Part shown: positions 12,262-63,598 of the stretch, piece after piece
Position numbering within the stretch: position 1 is the stretch's first letter
Layout of the letters: every line of letters begins with the position of its first letter
Source of the DNA: a bacterium
GTDB taxonomy: Bacteria; Zixibacteria; MSB-5A5; GN15; FEB-12
Direction of reading: 5' to 3'
Length of the DNA stretch: 64,000 bases
Assembly (NCBI GenBank): GCA_043811375.1
Contig: JBDRNJ010000064.1
Coordinates: 64,001-128,000 of the forward strand
Translations under genes and position numbers: made by a program
The notes under the pieces: generated by a model
What the model was told of the DNA's origin: nothing
Database searches by the model: none
Seen by the model: only the letters and a program-made list of their open reading frames with translations

Positions 12262-12654
12262 GTTTCCTCCAGTGCCAAGATTAGATATTCCGGTTTTTTC
12301 CCGTGTCTTGGCTGCAGCCACGACAGAGAGAACTTATCCTGCAACTGAAATTAGGCGGTCAGGGCAGGTATGGCAAGAAAAACTATCGGTCCCGATTTCC
12401 GTTATCCGGCTGCCGGTGTTAGTAAATCACCCCGGGTTGCTGCTCGACTGATTCGCTCCGAGTTTGGATTTCAGGAACGCCGGTACGCCCCATTGCAATG
12501 TAATACATAGTGGGACAACCACTTATATCTGTTGACGTGTGGCTGGTCGGTTCGGCGGGTCCGGCTGAAGGTGATTGACCTGAGAGTGAAGAAATAACCG
12601 GCAGCCATTGTACATTATCTAACCGATAGCCGCGAAACATTTTGTAATTAACTC

Positions 12655-12683
12655 TGGACTTTGTTATTTAGAACCGATATATT
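12655..12683 (+). promoter_or_regulatory. Putative sigma70 promoter of RRM gene 1
   Basis: TGGACT-N17-TATATT, at the same relative position as the promoter of the paralog. Confidence 0.55.
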
Positions 12684-12864
12684 TAGTGACCAAAACTGGT
12701 TTCTATCACTGCTTTTGCTGAGGCTTTGTTCTTTCAACTTAATCTCTGAAAAGGCTGAGTTTGGGAACCGACGCGCAATGGTGCGCTTAAACGGGTTTAT
12801 CTCGACGAAAGCAGTCCCTGCGGGATGAGGTTTCGGGTGGGGATAAGCAAGACCGGAGTGTAGA

Positions 12865-13200
12865 ATGAACATCTACGTAGGTAACCTGTCGTTTGATACG
12901 ACAGAAGAGCAATTACGTCAGGCGTTTGAGGGCTTTGGAGAAGTCTCGAGCATCAACATCATCAAGGACAAGTACACCGGCGAACCAAGAGGATTTGGTT
13001 TCGTGGAGATGCCCGACGGAGAACAGTCCCAAGCCGCTATCGCCGGCTTGAACGGTCAGGACTTGAACGGGCGTACGTTGAATGTTAACGAGGCACGCCC
13101 GCGCGCCGATAGAGGCGGCGGCGGCGGTGGTCGTGGTGGCGGTGGTGGCCGCGGCGGCGGCGGCGGTCGTGGCGGCAACCAGCGTCGTCGGACCTGGTAA
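12865..13200 (+). CDS. RRM (RNP-1) RNA-binding protein with Gly/Arg-rich tail
   Basis: RNP2 IYVGNL, RNP1 RGFGFVEM, GGRGG tail. Confidence 0.95.
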   Translation: MNIYVGNLSFDTTEEQLRQAFEGFGEVSSINIIKDKYTGEPRGFGFVEMPDGEQSQAAIAGLNGQDLNGRTLNVNEARPRADRGGGGGGRGGGGGRGGGGGRGGNQRRRTW

Positions 13201-13247
13201 TGGATTTCGAGTTTACCGCTCGTAATTACGAAAACTTCATTTGTTAG

Positions 13248-13278
13248 AAGGAGACCGGCTTGAGCCGGTCTCCTTTGT
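13248..13278 (+). terminator. Intrinsic terminator
   Basis: AAGGAGACCGGCT-TG-AGCCGGTCTCCTT inverted repeat followed by T-rich sequence. Confidence 0.8.
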
Positions 13279-13506
13279 ATTTCTTGATTGTCGGTTTGGT
13301 AACCCGGATAATGCCAATTGTAGTCACCGTACTAAATGTATTCGGGCAACAATCGGGACAGCTTTACTCGTCAACGTAATCAATTGTAATCCATGGACAT
13401 ACAGCTCTACAAGGGTAAATGGTGTGGTCGGAATGGATGCCGGGAAGTCTGCCCGGGGAAACCGGCAGGGAAAAATAGTTTATTGAAACTATGTTTATTG
13501 AAACTA

Positions 13507-13535
13507 TTGACTTTATTACCATTAACCGATATAAA
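13507..13535 (+). promoter_or_regulatory. Putative sigma70 promoter of RRM gene 2
   Basis: TTGACT-N17-TATAAA. Confidence 0.65.
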
Positions 13536-13718
13536 CAACAGTTACATTTGGTTTCCGTCAATGCTTTTGTCGAGGCTTTGTTAAATTTCCTGTCAAATAA
13601 TCGGTAAAGCTGAATCTGGGGACCGCCGCGCAATAGTGCGCATTAATACGTTTGGCTTTACAGGCTTATCCTGCATGGCATAGAGTCTGTATCGGAACAA
13701 ACAAGACCGGAGTGTAGA

Positions 13719-14027
13719 ATGAATATCTACATTGGCAACCTGTCGTACGACACGACGGAAGAACAGTTACGTCAGGCGTTTGAAGACTTCGGAGAAGTCT
13801 CAAGCGTCAATATCATCAAGGACAAATACACCGGCGAATCAAGAGGATTTGCATTCGTGGAAATGCCTGACGAAGATAAGGCTCAGTCGGCAATCACCGG
13901 TGTGAACACCCAGGAATTGAACGGGCGCACGTTGAATGTCAACGAAGCGCGTCCGCGCAATGACGACCGCGGCGACCGTGGTGGTCGTGGTGGTGGTGGC
14001 GGTGGTTATCGCCAACACAACTGGTAG
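13719..14027 (+). CDS. RRM (RNP-1) RNA-binding protein, tandem paralog
   Basis: IYIGNL, RGFAFVEM; very similar to 12865..13200. Confidence 0.95.
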   Translation: MNIYIGNLSYDTTEEQLRQAFEDFGEVSSVNIIKDKYTGESRGFAFVEMPDEDKAQSAITGVNTQELNGRTLNVNEARPRNDDRGDRGGRGGGGGGYRQHNW

Positions 14028-24308: not shown

Positions 24309-24453
24309 TATCCTCCTGTAAATCCCAACTTGCCGTGGCGTTGAGGCAAAAGACTGACAACATCTCTCACGATATTCGCGACAAAACAGCCCTGATGGTA
24401 CATAAAAGATAACTTCGATTCACGCTGGGGTTTCTTTACATCAATGCTGCGTC

Positions 24454-24478
24454 TATGAGACGAGTTCCGCAACTGGGT
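24454..24478 (+). repeat. att-like direct repeat, copy A
   Basis: GAGACGAGTTCCGCAACTGGGT (24457-24478) is identical to 63528-63549. Confidence 0.8.
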
Positions 24479-24700
24479 GATGGAGAACGCAGCGTGAAAA
24501 TACGGCCCCGGCCTTACTCTCAGAATACTGTTGTGAGCTTTGAATTATCAATGCGTATGCACTACGGGATAATAGGTGGATGTCGTTGTAAAGAAATCAA
24601 GTGCAAGCAGACAAGCAACCAGAACCAGAATACAGTACGGAAACCAAAAGACAGGTTGAGCTTAAGCTTCTCCCTGGATATCGATCGAGAGTAATAAATA

Positions 24701-53702: not shown

Positions 53703-53970
53703 AAGTTGTTAAAATAATGCCGATATTTATGATAGTCAATCTAATCATTGTATACAGTCATAAGTCTGATTTGTTCCCAAGACGAAGCGGGCTCGTTCGT
53801 ATCGGAGCATCTCATAGGGTGTCATTAATTTGATGGCAAAACCAATGCCTACATTCGGTATCTTGGTTATTTTTATTGAAGGTGGTGCAATTTAATGGGT
53901 TACGACTGTGTCTTCATGGACCAGGGCGTGGGCTACCAGGTAGTAGCCGGCTGCGCCCGCTCAGTCTCGA

Positions 53971-54342
53971 TTTGCCGACAAGGAGATAGGTACGGTTCAA
54001 AAGCAGCTCAGCATTCGAGAGAGGAAACTCGACTAGCTCTATGATGCCATTGAGGAGGAACATGTTTCTTCCGCCGATTTGACCCCACGGCTAAGGAAGC
54101 TGATGGCCGAGGTTGATCAGCCTCGCCAGCGAGTGCGAGAGCCTGAATTCCAAAGAGACAGATGTCATCCTTCGACGACAGTGAGCCCGTTGAGACTGAG
54201 ATCGTTTATCAATAGAACAGATCCGGATTACCCGCAAGTAACTGTGGAATATGCATTTCCGGTAATTCCCGGGAGGGGAGGGGTAGCTGAGGAAGCTCTT
54301 GCTAATGACAAATTAGGCGAGTTATACGAGACGAGTTTCTAA
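53971..54342 (+). pseudogene. Remnant of a large serine recombinase C-terminal region
   Basis: Frame reads KQLSIRERKLD*LYDAIEE..ADLTPRLRKL..LRSFINR...QVTVEYAFPV with an in-frame TAG at 54034-54036; resembles the coiled-coil and C-terminal strands of these enzymes (recognised by eye). Confidence 0.55.
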
Positions 54343-54487
54343 TAAGTCTTTCCTCGACTGAAGTCATTGCGCAGCATATGATTCACTCCAGTCAGCCAGC
54401 ATCTGTTGTGGGAGTTTGGGTTGCTAAAAACCGGTGTAACGGATTCTGTCTACTCTAATAGAGAATCAGACTGTCGAACCAATGGCA
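54324..54487 (+). repeat. 164-bp direct repeat, copy 1
   Basis: Matches 57077-57240 with 9 mismatches by manual alignment. Confidence 0.95.
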
Positions 54488-54752
54488 TTAGTCAAACTGT
54501 GGCTTAGATTTCAATATTACCTGTTCGGATTGTTTGACGACGTACATTTTTCTTTAAATCGACAAACTGTCTCAGATTAGTAGATCATAAAGGAATCACC
54601 CATTCGCGGCAGTGAAGAGTCTGCGTGAGTTTTGGTTGCAGCGAGCTCCTATCGTCGTAATGAGTTCATCAGAAAAATACCGCCGGTAGGAAAGATTTCG
54701 ATGAACAAAATCAGAATCTGCGGATTGTCTGGTTAAACAAGGAGAACTACCG

Positions 54753-56051
54753 ATGAGCCAAATGAGAATCTTTATCCCGATCACTGCCTTGCTTATGATC
54801 AGTTTCGGCTATTCGATGAATCTGTCGGCCGACGAGGTCGTCCGACCCACAGAAATCAAGAGCAAGCGGCAGGTCATCTATGACCAGCCAACTTACGCGA
54901 AAATGGCCCGGTTGTGGAAAGACTATTATGATGAGTATCCATCCGAAAATGCTTACGCCAACTGGATGTATGCCACCCGGTACGCCGAGCAGGAAGATTA
55001 TGCCCGGTTACTGGATGTGGGCATGGAGAAGTATCCTGCCAACCCCATGTTGCTGTACCTGAAATCCATGCTTCGTCACGGGGGCCAGGACGACGCGCAG
55101 GAGCGGAAGTATCTTGAAGAAGCAGTACGTCTCGATCCGGACTACGCTGACCCGTGGTTCTCCCTTGTGATTGTCTACATGAATGCGCGCGACGAGGAGC
55201 GGCTGAACCTTGCTCTGCGCCATCTGCTCGAGAGCGGGTCCATCACCGATGAGGTGATGGATTACAATTACAATACACTGATCGGTCTTGAAGAGAACGC
55301 CATTCTCATAACCAACGGTGACAATGATACCTACCCGGCGTGGATTCTGACACGAATACTCCGGATCCGTCCCGATGTAGATATCGTTAACCGCAGCCTG
55401 TTGAATTCGGAATGGTACCCGCTGTATGTCATTGAGCAGGGGCTGCCCCGGTTCATCAGTAGGAGCCAACTGGAGAAGCTGCGCGACTCTGCGGCGAAAA
55501 GGCTGAAAAAGGGAGATACGGGTGTGCCTCCGGGAGGGTTGGTTGGCGATACGCTCATTAAGTTGCTTGTGAATTCGGCTGAGCGGGCTCGGCTGCCGGT
55601 TTATTTTGCAACTACACTTTATGTCACCGAAGATCTGAAAGAGCTGGCCGAGAACGGCAGGCAACTCGGCCTGGCGACACTCGTCACACCATCCGATATG
55701 CCATACTACGACCAACTGCGGAACGTTTTCGCTACGTGGACGACCAAATTTCGGACCGGCGGATTGGATAGCTGGAGCCTGCATCATGCACCCAAAGCTG
55801 ATGCAGGCCGATCATTGGTGCGTAATTATGTTTCGGGTATCGCGGTTAACCTGCCGGTGCTGAAGAAAAACGCACCGGAACTTCGCCTTTCGCTGTTTAA
55901 CTGGTATATTGCACATATCGAGAAACACCTCAGTGAGGAAATGAGACACAAGGTCGCTCAGACATGGGCATGTTACGGATCGGACCTAATGCACGTTGAT
56001 GAATGGTGCAAGAAACAGGGATTGAAGTGCCCGGAGCCACAGGAACAGTGA
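54753..56051 (+). CDS. Exported TPR-like protein with a DUF2723/TMEM260-like GDNDTYP segment
   Basis: Signal peptide; helical repeats; NAILITNGDNDTYPAW...RPDV.IVN.SLLN..WY. Confidence 0.7.
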   Translation: MSQMRIFIPITALLMISFGYSMNLSADEVVRPTEIKSKRQVIYDQPTYAKMARLWKDYYDEYPSENAYANWMYATRYAEQEDYARLLDVGMEKYPANPMLLYLKSMLRHGGQDDAQERKYLEEAVRLDPDYADPWFSLVIVYMNARDEERLNLALRHLLESGSITDEVMDYNYNTLIGLEENAILITNGDNDTYPAWILTRILRIRPDVDIVNRSLLNSEWYPLYVIEQGLPRFISRSQLEKLRDSAAKRLKKGDTGVPPGGLVGDTLIKLLVNSAERARLPVYFATTLYVTEDLKELAENGRQLGLATLVTPSDMPYYDQLRNVFATWTTKFRTGGLDSWSLHHAPKADAGRSLVRNYVSGIAVNLPVLKKNAPELRLSLFNWYIAHIEKHLSEEMRHKVAQTWACYGSDLMHVDEWCKKQGLKCPEPQEQ

Positions 56052-56584
56052 ATCCGGAGTGGGACTGTTTTTTTCGCTGCCGACAGGGAGACGAAGAAGC
56101 GTGGCGCGTGTTGACGGAAAAATATCGGTCACGCCTTTTGACACTGGCGCTGCTTATTACCGGATCAGGCGCTGCGGCGGAAGACGTCGTTCAAGAGACA
56201 TTCGTCCGGGCGCTAGGCGGCGCCATTAAGAATACCTCAGGCACGGTACACGGTTTCCTGGGAACTATTGCCTTTCGCCTGGCCGTGAAAGAAACGCAGC
56301 GTATGCGGCGATATGTTCGCCTGGATGCGCTTGAACGATTCGATCACGGTGAGAATCCAATGGAACAACTCTTGAAGGATGAGCGTCAGCGTTTCATCGC
56401 GGGGGCAATTGGCAGCCTTAATGTAGAGCACCGCGACGTTCTCCTGTTGCGTTGCTATGGTGGGCACAGTTATGAGGAGATCGCCAAACTGTTGAAAGTT
56501 CCGATAGGAACAGTTAAGTCACGGATTTTCTATGCCGTCAAGTCCTGTCGCGACATATTACGGCGGAAGGGAATGTTAGAGTAA
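56048..56584 (+). CDS. ECF sigma-70 factor
   Basis: GDEEAW; AEDVVQETF; SYEEIAKLL.VPIGTVKSRI. Confidence 0.92.
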   Translation: MNPEWDCFFRCRQGDEEAWRVLTEKYRSRLLTLALLITGSGAAAEDVVQETFVRALGGAIKNTSGTVHGFLGTIAFRLAVKETQRMRRYVRLDALERFDHGENPMEQLLKDERQRFIAGAIGSLNVEHRDVLLLRCYGGHSYEEIAKLLKVPIGTVKSRIFYAVKSCRDILRRKGMLE

Positions 56585-57006
56585 TGCACATCAGTGAAGA
56601 TAAACTTATCGAGTACGCACTCGAAATCGTCGATGTTGATAACGAACGTGCAGAGATCGAAGAGCACCTTGAGACCTGTCAATTGTGTCGCTCAAGATTG
56701 AGAGAGGTGCGGAGCGATATTGATACCATCAGCAGCATTCGGCTAGACCGACCGGTTGCAGCGACACCGTCGAGCACTACGTGGCACGACGCAGTTTACC
56801 CATTACTTCGGGTGGCTGCTCTCATCGTAATCGGTCTGGTGGCGGGATTCGGTACATCACTATGGTTTGAGGATAAGCCGGCACGCGTGGTTTCGCAATA
56901 TGTGACGCTGTCATCACCGGCAGACTCCGTTAGCCGGTATGCTGCATCAGATGCAACTGATATATCATCGGACTATTACAGGCATATGTTACAGGATATT
57001 AAGTAA
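56584..57006 (+). CDS. Zinc-binding (zf-HC2) membrane anti-sigma factor
   Basis: HLETCQLC (HxxxCxxC); one TM helix; coupled to the sigma gene. Confidence 0.88.
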   Translation: MHISEDKLIEYALEIVDVDNERAEIEEHLETCQLCRSRLREVRSDIDTISSIRLDRPVAATPSSTTWHDAVYPLLRVAALIVIGLVAGFGTSLWFEDKPARVVSQYVTLSSPADSVSRYAASDATDISSDYYRHMLQDIK

Positions 57007-57076
57007 ATCCTTCCATATCAACTGTATGTCGTCAAACAAAGTGAACATGACGGTGTTGCAAGTTATTATGCGGACC

Positions 57077-57240
57077 ATACAAGACGAGTTTCTATAAGGA
57101 CTCGCCTCGACTGAAGTCATTGCGCAGCATATGATTCACTCCAGTCAGCCAGTATCTGTTGTGGGAGTTTGGGCTGCTAAAAACCGGTGTAACGGATTCT
57201 GTCTACTCTAATAGAGAATCAGACTGTCGAACCAATGGCA
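57077..57240 (+). repeat. 164-bp direct repeat, copy 2
   Basis: Near-identical to 54324-54487. Confidence 0.95.
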
Positions 57241-57258
57241 GCTGACAGAAAGGTGACT

Positions 57259-57366
57259 TTATTTATTCTTCTTTTCTTTTTTCGATTGTCGTTTTTCCTT
57301 TGGACTGCGCTGGGCCTTTTTCTGTTGTTCCCTTTTGCCCTTATCTTTCTTTCCTTTATCACCCAT
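57259..57366 (-). CDS. 35-aa Lys-rich peptide
   Basis: GGAG RBS then MGDKGKKDKGKREQQKKAQRSPKEKRQSKKEKKNK. Confidence 0.65.
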   Translation of the reverse strand: MGDKGKKDKGKREQQKKAQRSPKEKRQSKKEKKNK

Positions 57367-57531
57367 ATTTGTTTCTCCGTGTTTGAAATTGACTTGAGCC
57401 GGCCATGGTGGGTTTCTTTTTGTTCTTATATTATGCCAAAGCCGTACTCCAATAACAATATATACAGGTGGTGTTTGCGAATGGCAACAAAAAAAACTGG
57501 CCATCCCCTGGGTCGAAAATCGATGCGGGCC

Positions 57532-57671
57532 TTACGAGACGAGTTTCTAAAAAGCATTACCTCGATTGAAGTCATTGTGCGGCAGACGATATACTCCAGT
57601 CAGCCGGCATCTGTTGTGGGAGTTGGGGTTGCTTAAAATCGGTGTGGCGGATTCTGTCAACTCTAATAGAG
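57532..57671 (+). repeat. Diverged, right-truncated repeat, copy 3
   Basis: TACGAGACGAGTTTCTA...GAAGTCATTG...ACTCCAGTCAGCC..CATCTGTTGTGGGAGTT...CGGATTCTGTC.ACTCTAATAGAG. Confidence 0.9.
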
Positions 57672-57677
57672 CATGGA

Positions 57678-59072
57678 TTACTTGTAATGCTGCCGAATGA
57701 ACTCCTCGGTCTCCGGCAAACCTCCCTGGAGGATGAGGTAACCGTTATGCGGCTCACGCTCCGTGATTTCGTGATTGACGGGGTGTCGCATCATGCGCAT
57801 GACTTCGTCATGGTCATCGGTGTGACCGAGCACCCAGCATAATTTCATTAAAGCCGTCTCCGGGAGCATGTTGTCAAGGGGTATTACGCCGATGTCGAGC
57901 AGGTCACGTCCGGTGTCATAAACATACATCTGAGTAAATCCCCAGAGAGTTTGCACGGTCATAACAACGTGAACTCCATTGTCAATGGCCTTTTTCAGGG
58001 CTGGATAGAGCGGCTTATTGACATGGCCAAGACCGGTGCCCGCGATAACGATTCCCCGGTAGCCTTTCTCCACGTATGCGTCAACCAGGTTCGGGTTCAT
58101 GCCCGGATAGTAATAGAGGATGGAGACGTGATCATCGTATACGGGGTCGATGACAACCTTGCGTTGCCGGTCACGCGACAGGTAGTCGTCCGTGAGATAT
58201 TTGAACTTATCGTTGTGGACAATACAGAGCGGGATATCTCCTAACGTCCGGAACGTGCTGCGATATGAACTGTGCATCTTACGACACCTTGTTCCACGGT
58301 GGAGCAGCCCATATTGATCCGACGTAGGGCCGAACATGCAGATCTGTACTTCCGCAATGTCGCCGTGGGCAGCCGCGTTCACGGCGTGAATCAGGTTGAT
58401 TGCGGCGTCGCTACTCGGTCTATCAGAGCTCCGCTGACTGCCGACTATGACAATCGGGACGGGGCTATTCTGAACCATGAACGTCAGTATGGCGGCGCTA
58501 TGGCCCATTGTATCGGTGCCGTGGCCGATAACGATGCCGTCAGCACCGGCTTCGATTTCCTCGCCGATCGATTTGGCCAGAGTGATATATTGCTGTGCCG
58601 CCATGTTCTCGGAAAATACTCCGAACAGCTTTATTGTTTTCAGGTTGCAGATATTGGCCAGCTCCGGAACCGCGCCGTACAGTTCGCCGGGCGAGAAGGC
58701 CGGGATCACGGCACCAGTCCGGTAATCCAGACGGGATGCGATTGTGCCCCCGGTTCCGAGGAGCGTTACATTTGGAAAATCAGGATTCCGTGGAAATTCC
58801 TTTTCCGGGATTTTATAAATCGCCTCCTTGCGTCCGAGCTCCTCTATCTTACGAATGCGGTTCACGTTTACGCCGACGTTATAACCGTTTTTCATTTTGA
58901 TCACGATGTATTTGTCGTTGTGAGATCCGCTACGCGGCAATATGACTCCATTGAAGATACTACCAGCGTCATTGGTTACGCTCACGTCGCTCCAAACTCT
59001 TACACCCCATTCACTCAATTTTCTTCGGGCGAGGCCGGTGTAACCTTTTAACTCGTCTTTTTCCTGTCCCAT
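57678..59072 (-). CDS. gatD: Glu-tRNA(Gln) amidotransferase subunit D
   Basis: N-terminal GVILPR...KMKNGYNVG domain; TGGTIASRLDYRTGAV; HGTDT; GSQRSSDRPSSD; RKMHSS. Confidence 0.93.
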   Translation of the reverse strand: MGQEKDELKGYTGLARRKLSEWGVRVWSDVSVTNDAGSIFNGVILPRSGSHNDKYIVIKMKNGYNVGVNVNRIRKIEELGRKEAIYKIPEKEFPRNPDFPNVTLLGTGGTIASRLDYRTGAVIPAFSPGELYGAVPELANICNLKTIKLFGVFSENMAAQQYITLAKSIGEEIEAGADGIVIGHGTDTMGHSAAILTFMVQNSPVPIVIVGSQRSSDRPSSDAAINLIHAVNAAAHGDIAEVQICMFGPTSDQYGLLHRGTRCRKMHSSYRSTFRTLGDIPLCIVHNDKFKYLTDDYLSRDRQRKVVIDPVYDDHVSILYYYPGMNPNLVDAYVEKGYRGIVIAGTGLGHVNKPLYPALKKAIDNGVHVVMTVQTLWGFTQMYVYDTGRDLLDIGVIPLDNMLPETALMKLCWVLGHTDDHDEVMRMMRHPVNHEITEREPHNGYLILQGGLPETEEFIRQHYK

Positions 59073-59073
59073 A

Positions 59074-61071
59074 TCATTTACATTCAGTGATTCCCTGCGG
59101 CTTACTTTCAGCATATTGCCGGAGTTTTTGTTCGATAACTTCATTTACTTCCCTGCCCGGTACAATGCCCCTGAGATCAGGCATGACACATCCCATAAGG
59201 AACCTGATACGTCCTTCGCAATGTTCAGAGCGCCAGTGATGTTTTTCATCGGCCAGTATTAAATCGATCTTTCCAGCCCAGTCCGGAACATTCTCTGCCG
59301 GAGTGACTTCATCTATCAACTTGTTAAGCGGTTTCTGTGGATCGTCGGCCATGCGCATTACCAGCCGCTTCCAGGCATCGAGGATTACAGGCCTGATTGC
59401 CACAAGGCGGAATAACTCACAACATCTTTCCTTCGAGATATTGCCCGGAACAGATGATTTGCGATTTAATCCTTTCAGTTTTTCGCCGAAAAAGAAACAT
59501 GCTTGCCTGAGATCAGCCCCGGCTTCCTCGACAACGAGGTCCACCAGTGCGGCCCCGCCTCTCCGGATGAGGTAATGAATAGTGCTGAGGGGAACGCCGA
59601 CAGCACTGTATTCCGCTTCCCTAACCCACGGTGGTGGCGGCAGGTCGGCGTTGAGTCTCTCAACACGGTCACGTGTAACTTCGATTGGCGGGCTGTCCGT
59701 ATCCGGATACATGCGGTCGGGTCCTGGAAGGATACGCTCGAAATCGGTGCTCCCGTCCTCGAAAGGCTGGCGCGTTTCATTTGGCACCCCGTCAATAGCA
59801 TCCTCGTAACGAATGCGGATCTCCTCCACCGCTGTTATTGTGTCCTGCAGAGGTCCCCATACCACCACGAGCGAATCATCGGTGTTAAGGCCAATTTCTT
59901 TTACGAACGATTCCAACTCGGTATCCGAATCCTCGTATTCAGGCCACTGCTCGCAGTGGACCAGTATGGGCGGTTCATCGAGGGCGGCGATTACCCTTAT
60001 CCGTCCCGCAAGCTCATCGGCGAACGTACGGTTCGGCTGGGTCGGCCATGCGAGTGTACCGGCGAGCCCGGTCAGTCTCACTGCTCGAACGCAGAAATTT
60101 CCCTCGCCGCATGCCAGCTCAGGTAGTTCCATCTTTGCGACCCTCTTTTCCCAGTGTTCCTTCCTGAGAAACGGCAGCTTAGATTTGGAACACAAAGAGG
60201 TGACGTCTGCATGAGTGATTTTGATATCTTCAGGCGCCTTGAATCCGCGCCTGTTGAGGTCATCCCTTAACTCGAGGAGGTTCTTCTGGCGCACGGCCTC
60301 GCCGTGGACAAGCTTCTTAGCCCAGCCGGCACGCGGGACACCCTTGATTTCCACCCGCCGACCACCGCGAATCGATACGTTAACGTCCTGCCTGCTCGCA
60401 CCGATGCCTGTCCTGACGTGCCCGGTGCTCCTGCAGACTCGTCCGATAAGAAGGATCGCCTCCACGACTTCTTCGGGTGTCCGCAGGTCCGGACCCGTAA
60501 CCGTCTCGATCAGCGGCATGCCGAGGCGGTCGGTTCGCCAGACGATGAGATGCCCCTGGTCGGAAACCTCACGGCAGCTGTCTTCCTCCATGCTGACCTG
60601 CAGAATCGAAAGTTCCCTGCCACGGAAGGGAAGCCTGCCGTTTACCCCCACGATGGTAGTCCTTTGGAATCCGGTCGGAATCGAGCCGTCAAGATACTGC
60701 TTGCGGGCGATATGGACCTCATCGACTATGTCGCATCCAAGCATGAGGCACTGTTCAATAGCAATATCCAGAGCCTTCTGGTTCACGAGAAACGGCGGCG
60801 TGTCATCCATCTCATAGGTGCAAACGTTGCTCTCATGTAGAAGGTACATAATATTCTTTTTGGTTTTGAACTCCATGAGAGCCGTTCCGTCGTATTCACC
60901 GAACTCCGACAGCGTCGGCCTCATGTGACGTATTAATATGCCGTCATGTTCCCTGGTGTAAACGCCCGCGGGACACCGACAGAACATCTTGTGCACCGTG
61001 TCCAACTGTTGATGGACTTCCAGCCCGGTAATCAGGCCGATTTCAGTATAGTCGAGTTCTTCACTCACCAT
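59074..61071 (-). CDS. gatE: Glu-tRNA(Gln) amidotransferase subunit E
   Basis: LDY.EIGL..GLEVHQQL; MRPTLSE.GE.D; RKQYLDGSIPTGFQRT; EEDSCR; DRLGMPLIE; RQDVNVSI; GVP.ETR; LPGPDRMYPDTD. Confidence 0.93.
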   Translation of the reverse strand: MVSEELDYTEIGLITGLEVHQQLDTVHKMFCRCPAGVYTREHDGILIRHMRPTLSEFGEYDGTALMEFKTKKNIMYLLHESNVCTYEMDDTPPFLVNQKALDIAIEQCLMLGCDIVDEVHIARKQYLDGSIPTGFQRTTIVGVNGRLPFRGRELSILQVSMEEDSCREVSDQGHLIVWRTDRLGMPLIETVTGPDLRTPEEVVEAILLIGRVCRSTGHVRTGIGASRQDVNVSIRGGRRVEIKGVPRAGWAKKLVHGEAVRQKNLLELRDDLNRRGFKAPEDIKITHADVTSLCSKSKLPFLRKEHWEKRVAKMELPELACGEGNFCVRAVRLTGLAGTLAWPTQPNRTFADELAGRIRVIAALDEPPILVHCEQWPEYEDSDTELESFVKEIGLNTDDSLVVVWGPLQDTITAVEEIRIRYEDAIDGVPNETRQPFEDGSTDFERILPGPDRMYPDTDSPPIEVTRDRVERLNADLPPPPWVREAEYSAVGVPLSTIHYLIRRGGAALVDLVVEEAGADLRQACFFFGEKLKGLNRKSSVPGNISKERCCELFRLVAIRPVILDAWKRLVMRMADDPQKPLNKLIDEVTPAENVPDWAGKIDLILADEKHHWRSEHCEGRIRFLMGCVMPDLRGIVPGREVNEVIEQKLRQYAESKPQGITECK

Positions 61072-61157
61072 CTTACCAGCAATACTTTAACCGTCTCGAA
61101 ACCTGCGGCCAGGCCATGCGGTTACGCTCGTGACGTCTTAAGGTAGCACTAAGTTCC

Positions 61158-62672
61158 CTAACCGCAGTGAATACTGTCCGTTATAAGTTTTGAGAGTTGT
61201 TTTCTGTTTTTTCGCAGGGACCGTGCAAGGTTTTTATCATTGTATGAACGGAGCCTGGAAATGAGTATGTCTATCAGCGCAGGGGGGAACACTCCGAGCT
61301 TCTCATACACTTTACGGTTGTCTTCTAGTTTGTCCGCACTCTCGCTGCAGGAGCAGGGCAGAACAGCGGTTTTGCTTGTCGTTTTTCTGTTCTGAAGGTT
61401 CTCGATGCGTTGCATCTGCGCGAGTTCAATTGCCCCTTTGTCTTTAAGACCCGACCTCAATGCAACGAGGATGCCCGCGATAGTTAAGTGCACGTTGGCT
61501 GAGCCGTCCGGCAGGCGGAATTCGATAGTCTTTCGGTCGATATGTGCGTTACGCCGGTGCCCTGCTTTCTGGTTTACCACCTCCGCCATCGGCCGTCTGT
61601 GCCGCCACCCGAGGGGTACGCGGATAAGTGAACTGCGGTTACCCTCTCCCCATGTAGCCGTATCGGGAGCTTCCATTCCGGAGAGCAAACGGAGGTAGCT
61701 CGTTGGCACGGTGTTGCCGAACGCCGCCAGGCTTGGAGTATGCTTTAGAAGCCCTCCGATAGAATGGAGGCCTTTTGCGGAAACCTCTCCCGCCTTTGTG
61801 AACAGGATGTTGTCCTTGTCTTTCAGAAGTTGGAAGTGAAAGTGCAATCCGCTTCCGGCAAGCGTGGTGTCAATTTTCGGGGCAAAGGTGGCGACGAGGT
61901 TATACCTGGCGGCAATGTTGCGAACCACCCATTTTCCAATTACGAGTTGATCGGCCGCTTCAACAGGATCCTTAAGCGTGAATTCGATCTCGTGTTGCTC
62001 GCAGAATTTCCCGCCCTCGGACCCGCCTCCAACTTCGGCATGGGCATATTTTACACCGATACCGAGCGAAGTAAGCTCATCGATTATTTCGTCCCTGACG
62101 TTCTGGAATCGAACGAAGGGCGTGGACTCCTGGTAAAGGGTTTTGCCCGGTTGACCGGTCCCTTCGCCGGGTCCGATAAGGTAAAACTCGAGCTCCCCGA
62201 GGAATCGGGTCGATAAGTTCGTTTCGTGGGCCAGCGCGTTTTTCGCCTCCATGACGAGGCGATACGGGCAAAGTTCGAACTGACGCTCATCCGCGCCGAA
62301 GCATGCGGTCATAAGCACGAGAGTGGGTATACTTGCAAACGGATTTACAAAGGCCGTGGAATATCGGGGCACAATGTAGATATCGCTCCTCGTCGAGTTG
62401 AGTTGTGGAAAGTGGTTCGAGCCATCCACCCGCTCGCCCATGTCGAGTATTTCTTCGAGGCGCGCTTTAGAAGTGATCGGAAAGGTAAGTGTTTTCATCC
62501 GCCCGTCACCGGACAGGGGTGATAATGTCAGGAGCCTTAGATTTTTCGCATAAGCATACCGCACAATGTCCTGTCTCGTAAAATCGCATGGAGGCTTTCC
62601 AAGAAACTCAGCGATTGGGTTTGACAGGTTTTTCTTCTTTTTTTTGCTACTGTTATTTCTTGCTTTTTTCAT
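61158..62672 (-). CDS. glnA: Glutamine synthetase (type I family)
   Basis: GERVDGS; ELEFY; HAEVG; QHEIEF; TFAPK..AGSGLHFH; SYLRL..G.EAP; NRSSLIRVP; IEFRLPD. Confidence 0.9.
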   Translation of the reverse strand: MKKARNNSSKKKKKNLSNPIAEFLGKPPCDFTRQDIVRYAYAKNLRLLTLSPLSGDGRMKTLTFPITSKARLEEILDMGERVDGSNHFPQLNSTRSDIYIVPRYSTAFVNPFASIPTLVLMTACFGADERQFELCPYRLVMEAKNALAHETNLSTRFLGELEFYLIGPGEGTGQPGKTLYQESTPFVRFQNVRDEIIDELTSLGIGVKYAHAEVGGGSEGGKFCEQHEIEFTLKDPVEAADQLVIGKWVVRNIAARYNLVATFAPKIDTTLAGSGLHFHFQLLKDKDNILFTKAGEVSAKGLHSIGGLLKHTPSLAAFGNTVPTSYLRLLSGMEAPDTATWGEGNRSSLIRVPLGWRHRRPMAEVVNQKAGHRRNAHIDRKTIEFRLPDGSANVHLTIAGILVALRSGLKDKGAIELAQMQRIENLQNRKTTSKTAVLPCSCSESADKLEDNRKVYEKLGVFPPALIDILISRLRSYNDKNLARSLRKNRKQLSKLITDSIHCG

Positions 62673-63524
62673 GTTTACCAGTCCAACATCAGACACTAAC
62701 TGCTTCAAGTTTCAGACCTTATTTGGAATATGAAGGATTGTGAAAGTCCTGAATTCTATCCGCAGAGCTCCCCCTGCGGATAATTCCATTTTTTGGAATA
62801 CAAACTACTTAGTAACGAAGCAGGATTTTTCGCCACAAATAGCTTAAAACCCTCAAGGGATGTTCACTGAAATTTACAGGCTGGTTGTGAGGTTTTTGCT
62901 GACGAATATTACGCCTGCATTTTCCAAAATCACGAAAGTCCGTTAGCATCAGGATGCTCTTTTCTTGCCTCTACCCGTGTATCATTGCATAAAATCCATG
63001 CTGCAATATTGATTACTAATATATATCACGCAGTAGGGTTGTCAACAGATTTCGTTTATTTTTGACCTTCTCCCAAAAAACTGGACCAGTCCAGGTTTCA
63101 GAATTCAACTGAATGCGGTTTTGGAGGGAGGACGGCACAATGCAGAAGAAACGGTTAGCAGACCAGCGGATCACACCCACCGTGTCCCATGATTCCGGAT
63201 GACAAGAGCTGCACAACTGCGATAGCCGGCGCTTCAGCCTGGTTCTTACTCAAGGCCACTGCAAGCCAATCCTCGCTATTGAATCACATTCCGACGCCGT
63301 GAGATTGTGGTTATAAGTGAGAAGTGTGGTACAGTTCTGATGTGGGATTGGGCGGTCCTTGTGAGATGTCATTACAGGGTAGAGCGGACTCAGCTCTCGT
63401 CTGACTCTGACAGGATCTGTCAGCCGTAGAATCACGAGAGACTTTTAACTGCAGGATTTCGATATCGAAATTATGGTAAACCTGCAAGTTATTGAATTAT
63501 TGCCGGTTACGGAATGGCGGGGGG

Positions 63525-63549
63525 TACGAGACGAGTTCCGCAACTGGGT
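63525..63549 (+). repeat. att-like direct repeat, copy B
   Basis: TACGAGACGAGTTCCGCAACTGGGT; 24 of 25 nt match 24454-24478; lies in a frame reading EWRGVRDEFRNWVI. Confidence 0.8.
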
Positions 63550-63598
63550 CATTCACAATTCGACTGCATGATTCATTAGCTGATGCCCCGGATCGGTG

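Follow-up and report, generated by a model that had tools for sequence, protein, structure and literature searches.

In Dehalococcoides, genomic islands carrying a large serine recombinase (LSR), DsiB, are found in tandem at ssrA and are bounded by direct repeats (McMurdie 2011, PMC3146451). The integration module is absent from 15 of the 31 ssrA islands, which were called possible cis-mobilisable elements (CIMEs), and it was proposed that dsiB is complete only on the circle or beside an island carrying the 3′ fragment; the part of this paper drawn on here thus already documents tandem accretion with members that lack a recombinase (PMC3146451). Accretion at tRNA genes has been described for the tycheposon islands (bioRxiv 10.1101/2020.12.28.424599) and for the additive flexible islands of Alteromonas (PMC4898812). 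In the mycobacteriophage BPs, the phage attachment site (attP) lies in the repressor gene and integration removes a proteolysis tag (PMC3694055), and the Mx8 and SSV integrases are known to span attP (PMC4383910). According to the latter source, the Islander paper of 2014, no serine integrase was known to have a tRNA gene as its target. In this work we analysed three direct repeats, and the genes around them, in a stretch of 64,000 nucleotides from a member of the Zixibacteria (the window; positions 64,001 to 128,000 of JBDRNJ010000064.1, here contig C64, assembly GCA_043811375.1). We consider it likely that these repeats are C-terminal tails of LSRs, which would mark, as far-end attachment (att) arms, islands inserted one after the other, most of them since left without a recombinase.

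Three Direct Repeats in the Window

The three copies lie on the + strand and start at 54324, 57077 and 57533, in the same orientation, as an earlier note made from the letters of the window had described. Copies 1 and 2 are 94.5% identical over 164 bp, copies 1 and 3 86.6% over 142 bp, and copies 2 and 3 82.9% over 152 bp, with pairwise E values ranging from 1e-39 to 1e-68. No fourth long copy was found across the 3.56-Mb genome, in which GACGAGTTTCTA is present three times. The frame (R/Q)DEFL can be read in all the copies, and copy 3 indeed abuts the gatD stop, as it ends at 57674 and a gap of 3 nt separates it from the stop at 57678. By contrast, the left flank, said to differ in every copy, contains a GCGGG-N4 motif, which copy 3 retains exactly and copies 1 and 2 carry in a decayed form. 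No gene was detected by ARAGORN in the window, and the single-strand folding of the repeats (z from −0.66 to 1.43 over six strands, with the attC model not run) did not go beyond that of shuffled sequences.

The DEFRNW repeats of the earlier note share the core and turned out to be sister tails, here called the DDFRNW class, at 24444 and 63515; they are LSR tails of the same kind. A further one lies on the same contig at C64:134848. Because of these three sites, copy 1 is not the start of the array, as had been proposed.

Coding Content of the Repeats

By its reading frame, each repeat encodes the C-terminal tail of an LSR predicted to target tRNA-Asp, which is most likely the target of the window's tail class. 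The repeat core is similar to the 3′ end of the host's tRNA-Asp read in antisense, with GCGGG, four bases and ACGAGAC in both, the four bases differing between tail and tRNA; the match is to tRNA-Asp, and not to the end of the transfer-messenger RNA (tmRNA). Nine PF07508 matches were found in the genome. An intact LSR of 531 aa on contig C28 reads into tRNA-Asp, and the LSR on contig C32 ends in MRG, with a stop supplied by tRNA-Asp-like sequence. A C-terminal sequence of the tRNA type was recognised, by a regular expression, in 94 of 120 homologs of the C32 protein. One of the 120, P0005 (MBN4056824.1), has the tail in frame at its C-terminus, KPFDILAKGADFES-MRALRDEFLKSMNSTEVIE, and copy 3 reads MRALRDEFLKSITSIEVIV. 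Since P0005 ends in the tail sequence read by copy 3, the repeat is the coding tail of the LSR clade of P0005 and the C32 protein. The locus of P0005 was absent among the 80 loci listed, and its AlphaFold model, in which the tail lengthens the last helix, is uninformative at a pLDDT of about 50 or lower.

The comparison of sequences shows one LSR body in two forms, tRNA-joined and tail-joined. As the two forms diverge after GCGGG, we infer that the crossover falls there, and the GCGGG-N4 motif in the left flank likewise places it to the left of TAC(G/A)AGAC; it is therefore likely to lie within GCGGG, a few bases left of the position given in the earlier note. We rejected the idea that the crossover falls at ACGAGAC and displaces a fragment of the tRNA, because most sites do not match tRNA-Asp in the 4 nt left of ACGAGAC, and the change in P0005 lies between MR and ALRD. 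We also discarded, as a general feature, a second core in inverted orientation 50 nt upstream, since it is clear (≤3 mismatches) in 4 of 67 sites only; at a few sites (G047:C30, G040:C13 and L014) such a copy stands exactly 50 nt upstream.

In the phylum, 14 of the 30 LSR loci of the tail's clade read into tRNA-Asp, 12 into other tRNAs and 4 into none. In-frame fusions of short LSR stubs to DxFxNW tails were observed at five of eight metagenome loci and in G083, G084 and G113. A strict fusion pattern was not found in the metagenomes, nor was the tail pattern found in viral contigs; three metagenome matches (L253, L254 and L257) were dropped as chance. As for the C32 contig itself, its LSR lacks the 5′ end and stands beside the end of an insertion sequence (IS). 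In G000, at C32:1511 and C32:17861, 25 nt of tRNA-Asp antisense precede a common arm, a second att type at tRNA-Asp, and C28:16951-17694 holds another LSR fragment of the C32 clade, cut by an IS and joined to yet another tail.

The Recombinase Remnant and a Putative Hybrid Joint

The decayed recombinase that precedes copy 1, at which the earlier note had the array begin, belongs to a second clade of tRNA-Asp LSRs and does not own the tail. It was matched by 95 of 120 homologs of the C28 clade versus 1 of 120 of the C32 clade, to which the tail belongs; its identity is 43% to P0129 (E 1.8e-29, tblastn) and 30.7% to the intact C28 LSR. Copy 1 does start within the last codons of the remnant, but the frames differ, as the remnant ends in GELYETSF and a stop, out of frame with the RDEFL tail. 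With the remnant in one clade and the tail in the other, copy 1 would represent the joint of an older island to a newer tail. P0122 is apparently a comparable hybrid.

Arrays in Other Genomes

In the cross-genome search suggested in the earlier note, 73 of 285 genomes from the phylum held the tail-site pattern, against 2 matches of the reversed control; the matches L024 and L025 were dropped as chance. The array regions fetched were selected because sites are present, and both strands were scanned; the additions by hand were the window's 24444 site and one degenerate site of G040, the latter being one of the 33 that follow. In the 12 arrays reaching a tRNA, all 33 sites are oriented towards it, and the array ends at tRNA-Asp in nine cases and at tRNA-Gln, -Asn and -Thr in one each. 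In the nine tRNA-Asp arrays an LSR is present in four of the nine tRNA-proximal segments and in none of the 20 inner segments, and no tyrosine recombinase was found in 18 inner segments of five genomes checked. The array units range from 0.05 to 30 kb and are multi-gene, with genes on either strand; units bounded by att and devoid of a recombinase, as CIMEs are defined, are thus found. The claim of the earlier note that serine-recombinase att arms bound units stacked in one orientation is supported by these data.

Proposed Mechanism and Competing Explanations

In the proposed mechanism, attP lies inside the 3′ end of the LSR gene, as the sequences show by one LSR body occurring in both joined forms. 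Crossover at the common GCGGG in the tRNA acceptor stem would restore the tRNA, leave the LSR to end at a tRNA-derived stop or after a short read-through, and shift the tail to the far end of the island. Later islands would then enter the restored tRNA and displace the older ones outward. If the LSR module were deleted, the resulting tail-cargo units could move only with, or helped by, an intact neighbour, i.e., they would be cis-mobilisable. Copy 1 of the window, in this scheme, would be the point at which a newer tail meets an older island of the C28 clade. With their decayed cores, copies 1 and 2 are probably dead, and, as the cargo between them is not bounded by tails in eight other genomes, the stretch looks frozen; it is probably a decayed piece of such an array.

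Several points weigh against successive islands as the origin of the tails. C64 ends 1.9 kb past its last site, before any tRNA-Asp, so the anchor of the window's array is not seen; tRNA-Asp genes are on C27 and C28. Asp-type sites also occur within arrays that end at tRNA-Gln, -Asn or -Thr (tails with a tRNA-Asp-type core at G000 C31:10953 and 22289, L099 and L096), which suggests either composite movement or relaxed targeting, and no tRNA was found within the 14-20 kb fetched downstream of four sites (two in G115, one each in G166 and G119). A stub of an LSR of the tail's clade is present in 2 of 65 left flanks only, where simple decay predicts many, and the tails are well preserved beside cargo proteins diverged to 41-49%, which is unexpected for passive scars. 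Moreover, no reads of the same strain and no excision joint were found (the best run had a share of 0.13); in contigs from the sequencing runs no joint across the repeats was observed, the region 54.4-57.2 kb being little covered.

A local duplication or gene conversion, by an IS or by homologous recombination, may explain the near-identity of copies 1 and 2 in place of two LSR insertions. This possibility, which we retain tentatively, is compatible with the repeats being LSR tails. The two copies differ at 7 of 31 core-proximal bases and at 2 of 133 distal bases (Fisher p 1.3e-4), and both extend 20-odd bases past copy 3. The extension of copy 1 aligns to an IS end, as its right side continues into the right end of an IS (54479-54546), and IS-like ends face the cargo on both sides. 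However, the second of these ends is weak, the extension of copy 2 alone is not above shuffles, and the arrays of the relatives are without such long repeats.

A different explanation is that the units are live cassettes without a recombinase, in a maintained integron-like system in which their excision, capture and reordering are the work of a single LSR located at the tRNA; each tail would complete the LSR gene on a composite circle, and in the common tail class the Ala-Ala end would make the circle form short-lived. This we regard as unlikely, even if part of the evidence agrees with it. In addition to the absence of LSRs from the inner segments, the same gene sets recur across genera: a unit of 7-9 kb led by an ECF gene fills tail-bounded units in G000, G125, G021 and, inverted, in G047 (41-49% protein identity), and an eight-gene unit is the whole content of tail-bounded units in G021, G023 and G125. 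The DDFRNW tails (n = 55) also show coding constraint: the ratio of non-synonymous to synonymous differences (pN/pS) is 0.54 over the whole tail and 0.40 once the bases by which the tails were found are set aside, compared with 0.68-1.86 in the five other frames. Their stops fall within three codon positions in 47 of 55 tails, and all three stop codons are used (over all 55, TGA 27, TAA 22 and TAG 6). Furthermore, in a larger set, an Ala-Ala end, for which each of the four Ala codons is used, was seen in 35 of 66 DDFRNW tails (35 of 54 if only those with a normal stop are counted), versus 7 of 1833 long open reading frames (ORFs) of the genome. The tag of the host tmRNA likewise ends in Ala-Ala, and ends of this type are recognised by ClpXP, which suggests that the end of the sister tails may act as a degron switch.

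On the other hand, the grouping of the tails follows genome and genus rather than cargo (identity 0.65, 0.58 and 0.52; 0 of 1000 permutations, kin not being independent), same-cargo pairs across genera are at 0.40-0.55, and G053 has five sites but no PF07508 match. The coding constraint of the DDFRNW tails could date from the active life of the islands, so that the signal would be inherited from recently active ones. The window itself argues against live cassettes, since the cores of copies 1 and 2 are decayed and its tail class has a pN/pS of 0.83-0.87 (n = 12) and no Ala-Ala end (0 of 13); the degron idea is therefore not directly applicable to the three copies. Its cargo unit, moreover, has no tail site nearby in any of the eight other genomes (16-20 kb fetched). 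Of the cassette accretion by mobilised modules proposed in the earlier note, the stacking is thus borne out, but not the role of this unit as a module.

In its widest form, the live-cassette idea would mean that many Zixibacteria have an equivalent of the integron based on a serine recombinase, in which multi-gene cassettes without a recombinase are kept mobile at tRNA-Asp, each carrying the last codons of the recombinase. The circle would complete the gene, the main tail class would add an ssrA-like Ala-Ala degron, and the integration state would set the lifetime and direction of the enzyme without a separate directionality factor. We regard this proposal as unlikely. Finally, that the repeats are a miniature inverted-repeat transposable element, a repetitive extragenic palindrome, a non-coding RNA or an assembly artefact is very improbable: the assembly is without confirming long reads or a same-strain run, but the three copies are not identical, lie on one strand and not in random orientation, have no Rfam match at E ≤ 5 and do not fold beyond shuffles, and the layout recurs in other genomes.

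Cargo, Insertion Sequence Ends and Neighbouring Genes

The features of the window are collected in Table 1. In the unit between copies 1 and 2, described in the earlier note as TPR/ECF sigma/anti-sigma, the ECF gene is well supported, while the TPR and zf-HC2 matches are weak and below the cut-off. Homologs of the 432-aa TPR-like protein, and the unit as a whole, are present in 23 of 285 genomes, and in 8 of 8 other genomes the ECF gene is followed by the putative anti-sigma gene; in three of these (L122, L125 and L128) the unit lies 3-7 kb from tmRNA. The IS end beside copy 1 reached a local score of 89, versus a maximum of 46.5 for the shuffles. The 1493-bp IS, which we take to be of the IS3 type, probably helped to place the unit. 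Tn7-like ends were considered for the inverted repeat at 54522/57020 and rejected in favour of IS ends.

Table 1. Features of the window discussed in the text (positions in the window).
Feature	Position	Strand	Remarks
Sister tail, DDFRNW class	24444..24497	+	internal stop present
LSR 3′ remnant, C28 clade	53962..54342	+	about residues 374-519 of 531; one internal stop, 23-residue gap; putative older island end
Copy 1	54315..54487	+	putative hybrid joint; decayed GCGGG-N4-ACGAGAC core, then LSR tail frame (RRVIRDEFLISLSSTEVI...); 5 mismatches vs 30-nt consensus core
IS right end	54458..54546	+	IS abundant in the genome, 1493-bp element on C54; 76.8% over 69 nt, E 5.7e-5
432-aa secreted-type protein, cargo	54753..56051	+	weak TPR match, PF13431 E 0.006, below cut-off
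ECF sigma factor, cargo	56048..56584	+	PF04542, PF08281, PF04545 above cut-off; TIGR02937
Probable zinc-finger anti-sigma factor, cargo	56584..57006	+	zf-HC2 E 0.0098, below cut-off
Weak candidate for a second IS terminus, towards the cargo	57023..57047	-	inverted repeat; 17-20 nt identical to IS ends; local alignment within the range of shuffles
Copy 2	57068..57240	+	decayed core, 5 mismatches vs 30-nt consensus core; stop in tail frame after DEFL
35-aa Lys-rich ORF	57259..57366	-	between copies 2 and 3; no Pfam match; many related contigs in four sediment runs
Copy 3	57523..57674	+	intact core, 0 mismatches; tail MRALRDEFLKSITSIEVIV..., stop 57634-57636; matches C-terminus of natural LSR P0005
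gatD, gatE, glnA-like gene	57678..62708	-	content of next segment; TIGR02153, TIGR00134 above cut-off
Sister tail, DDFRNW class	63515..63571	+	reads WRGVRDEFRNWVIHNSTA

The tiny peptide gene announced between copies 2 and 3 is present as the Lys-rich ORF. Its relatives have a very high summed depth in four sediment/marine runs and common ends near 57258 and 57402; it may be a small mobile unit of wide distribution. GatD, generally considered an archaeal protein, is found in 122 of 160 genomes of the order, with gatE adjoining where checked; the protein of the window is only 62-66% identical to 18 relatives, which are mostly 76-85% alike within their family. Being an outlier despite this wide presence, it looks horizontally acquired. 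The genome also holds a glnS-like motif. One sediment contig follows gatD up to 57669 and then departs, its final 305 letters having no place in the window; a related population may therefore have a different flank here. Elsewhere, at 12650-14005, two units of about 300 bp, 81% alike, 854 bp apart and with Gly/Arg-rich ends, are probably tandem genes for RNA-binding proteins, a label given by eye.

Comparison with Known Systems

Small repeats of this class would be explained as split recombinase genes and would offer a precise marker of island boundaries, one that would escape searches for tRNA fragments and tyrosine integrases. The analysis also supplies a testable set of LSR, attP and attB for an uncultured phylum. 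Should the Ala-Ala tail prove to be a degron, a serine integrase would carry its own control switch within itself.

Integrons are defined by IntI, attI and attC. The arrays described here resemble them in the ordered, same-orientation series of recombinase-less units beside one recombinase (4 of 9 arrays), but they differ in that no IntI-type gene is on C64 (of 10 PF00589 matches in the genome, none is on this contig) and no hairpin was detected; the earlier note was right in excluding IntI and attC features.

As in the tycheposon and Alteromonas islands, new elements would displace older ones from the tRNA, and remnants and cassettes accumulate, with cassettes common across taxa (bioRxiv 10.1101/2020.12.28.424599, PMC4898812). 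Those islands, however, have partial copies of the tRNA as their marker, and most tycheposons (910 of 937) depend on a tyrosine integrase, whereas our marker is a coding LSR tail. The likeness to BPs (PMC3694055) lies in an attP inside coding sequence and in a C-terminus swapped by integration, as in P0005 and the stub fusions. Unlike BPs, in which the repressor is split, the serine integrase would here split itself, and the degron is only predicted, for the DDFRNW class only. The term 'tRNA' was not found in the main text of PMC10083194, the passages of PMC12884075 and bioRxiv 10.64898/2026.01.13.699239 that were covered contain nothing on split tails, and a literature search of partial coverage, supplements not included, retrieved no paper that deals with the tails of LSRs at tRNA-Asp or describes a degron in a serine integrase that splits itself.

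The closest parallel is with the ssrA islands of Dehalococcoides, to judge from the sections of that work used here (PMC3146451). Both are tandem at one RNA gene, in both the LSR gene overlaps att at its 3′ end and at the target RNA gene, and boundary repeats of the same orientation follow downstream (33 of 33 sites in our arrays). In contrast to the ssrA islands, the target here is tRNA-Asp and the repeat is a displaced LSR tail, not a fragment of the target; beyond them go the natural tail-joined protein and the coding constraint on the tails. The window's array would work like the ssrA arrays, without being a member of that group by its target, and is not an integron; the new points are the tRNA target, the coding constraint on the tails and the Ala-Ala end of most sister tails, outside the window's own class.

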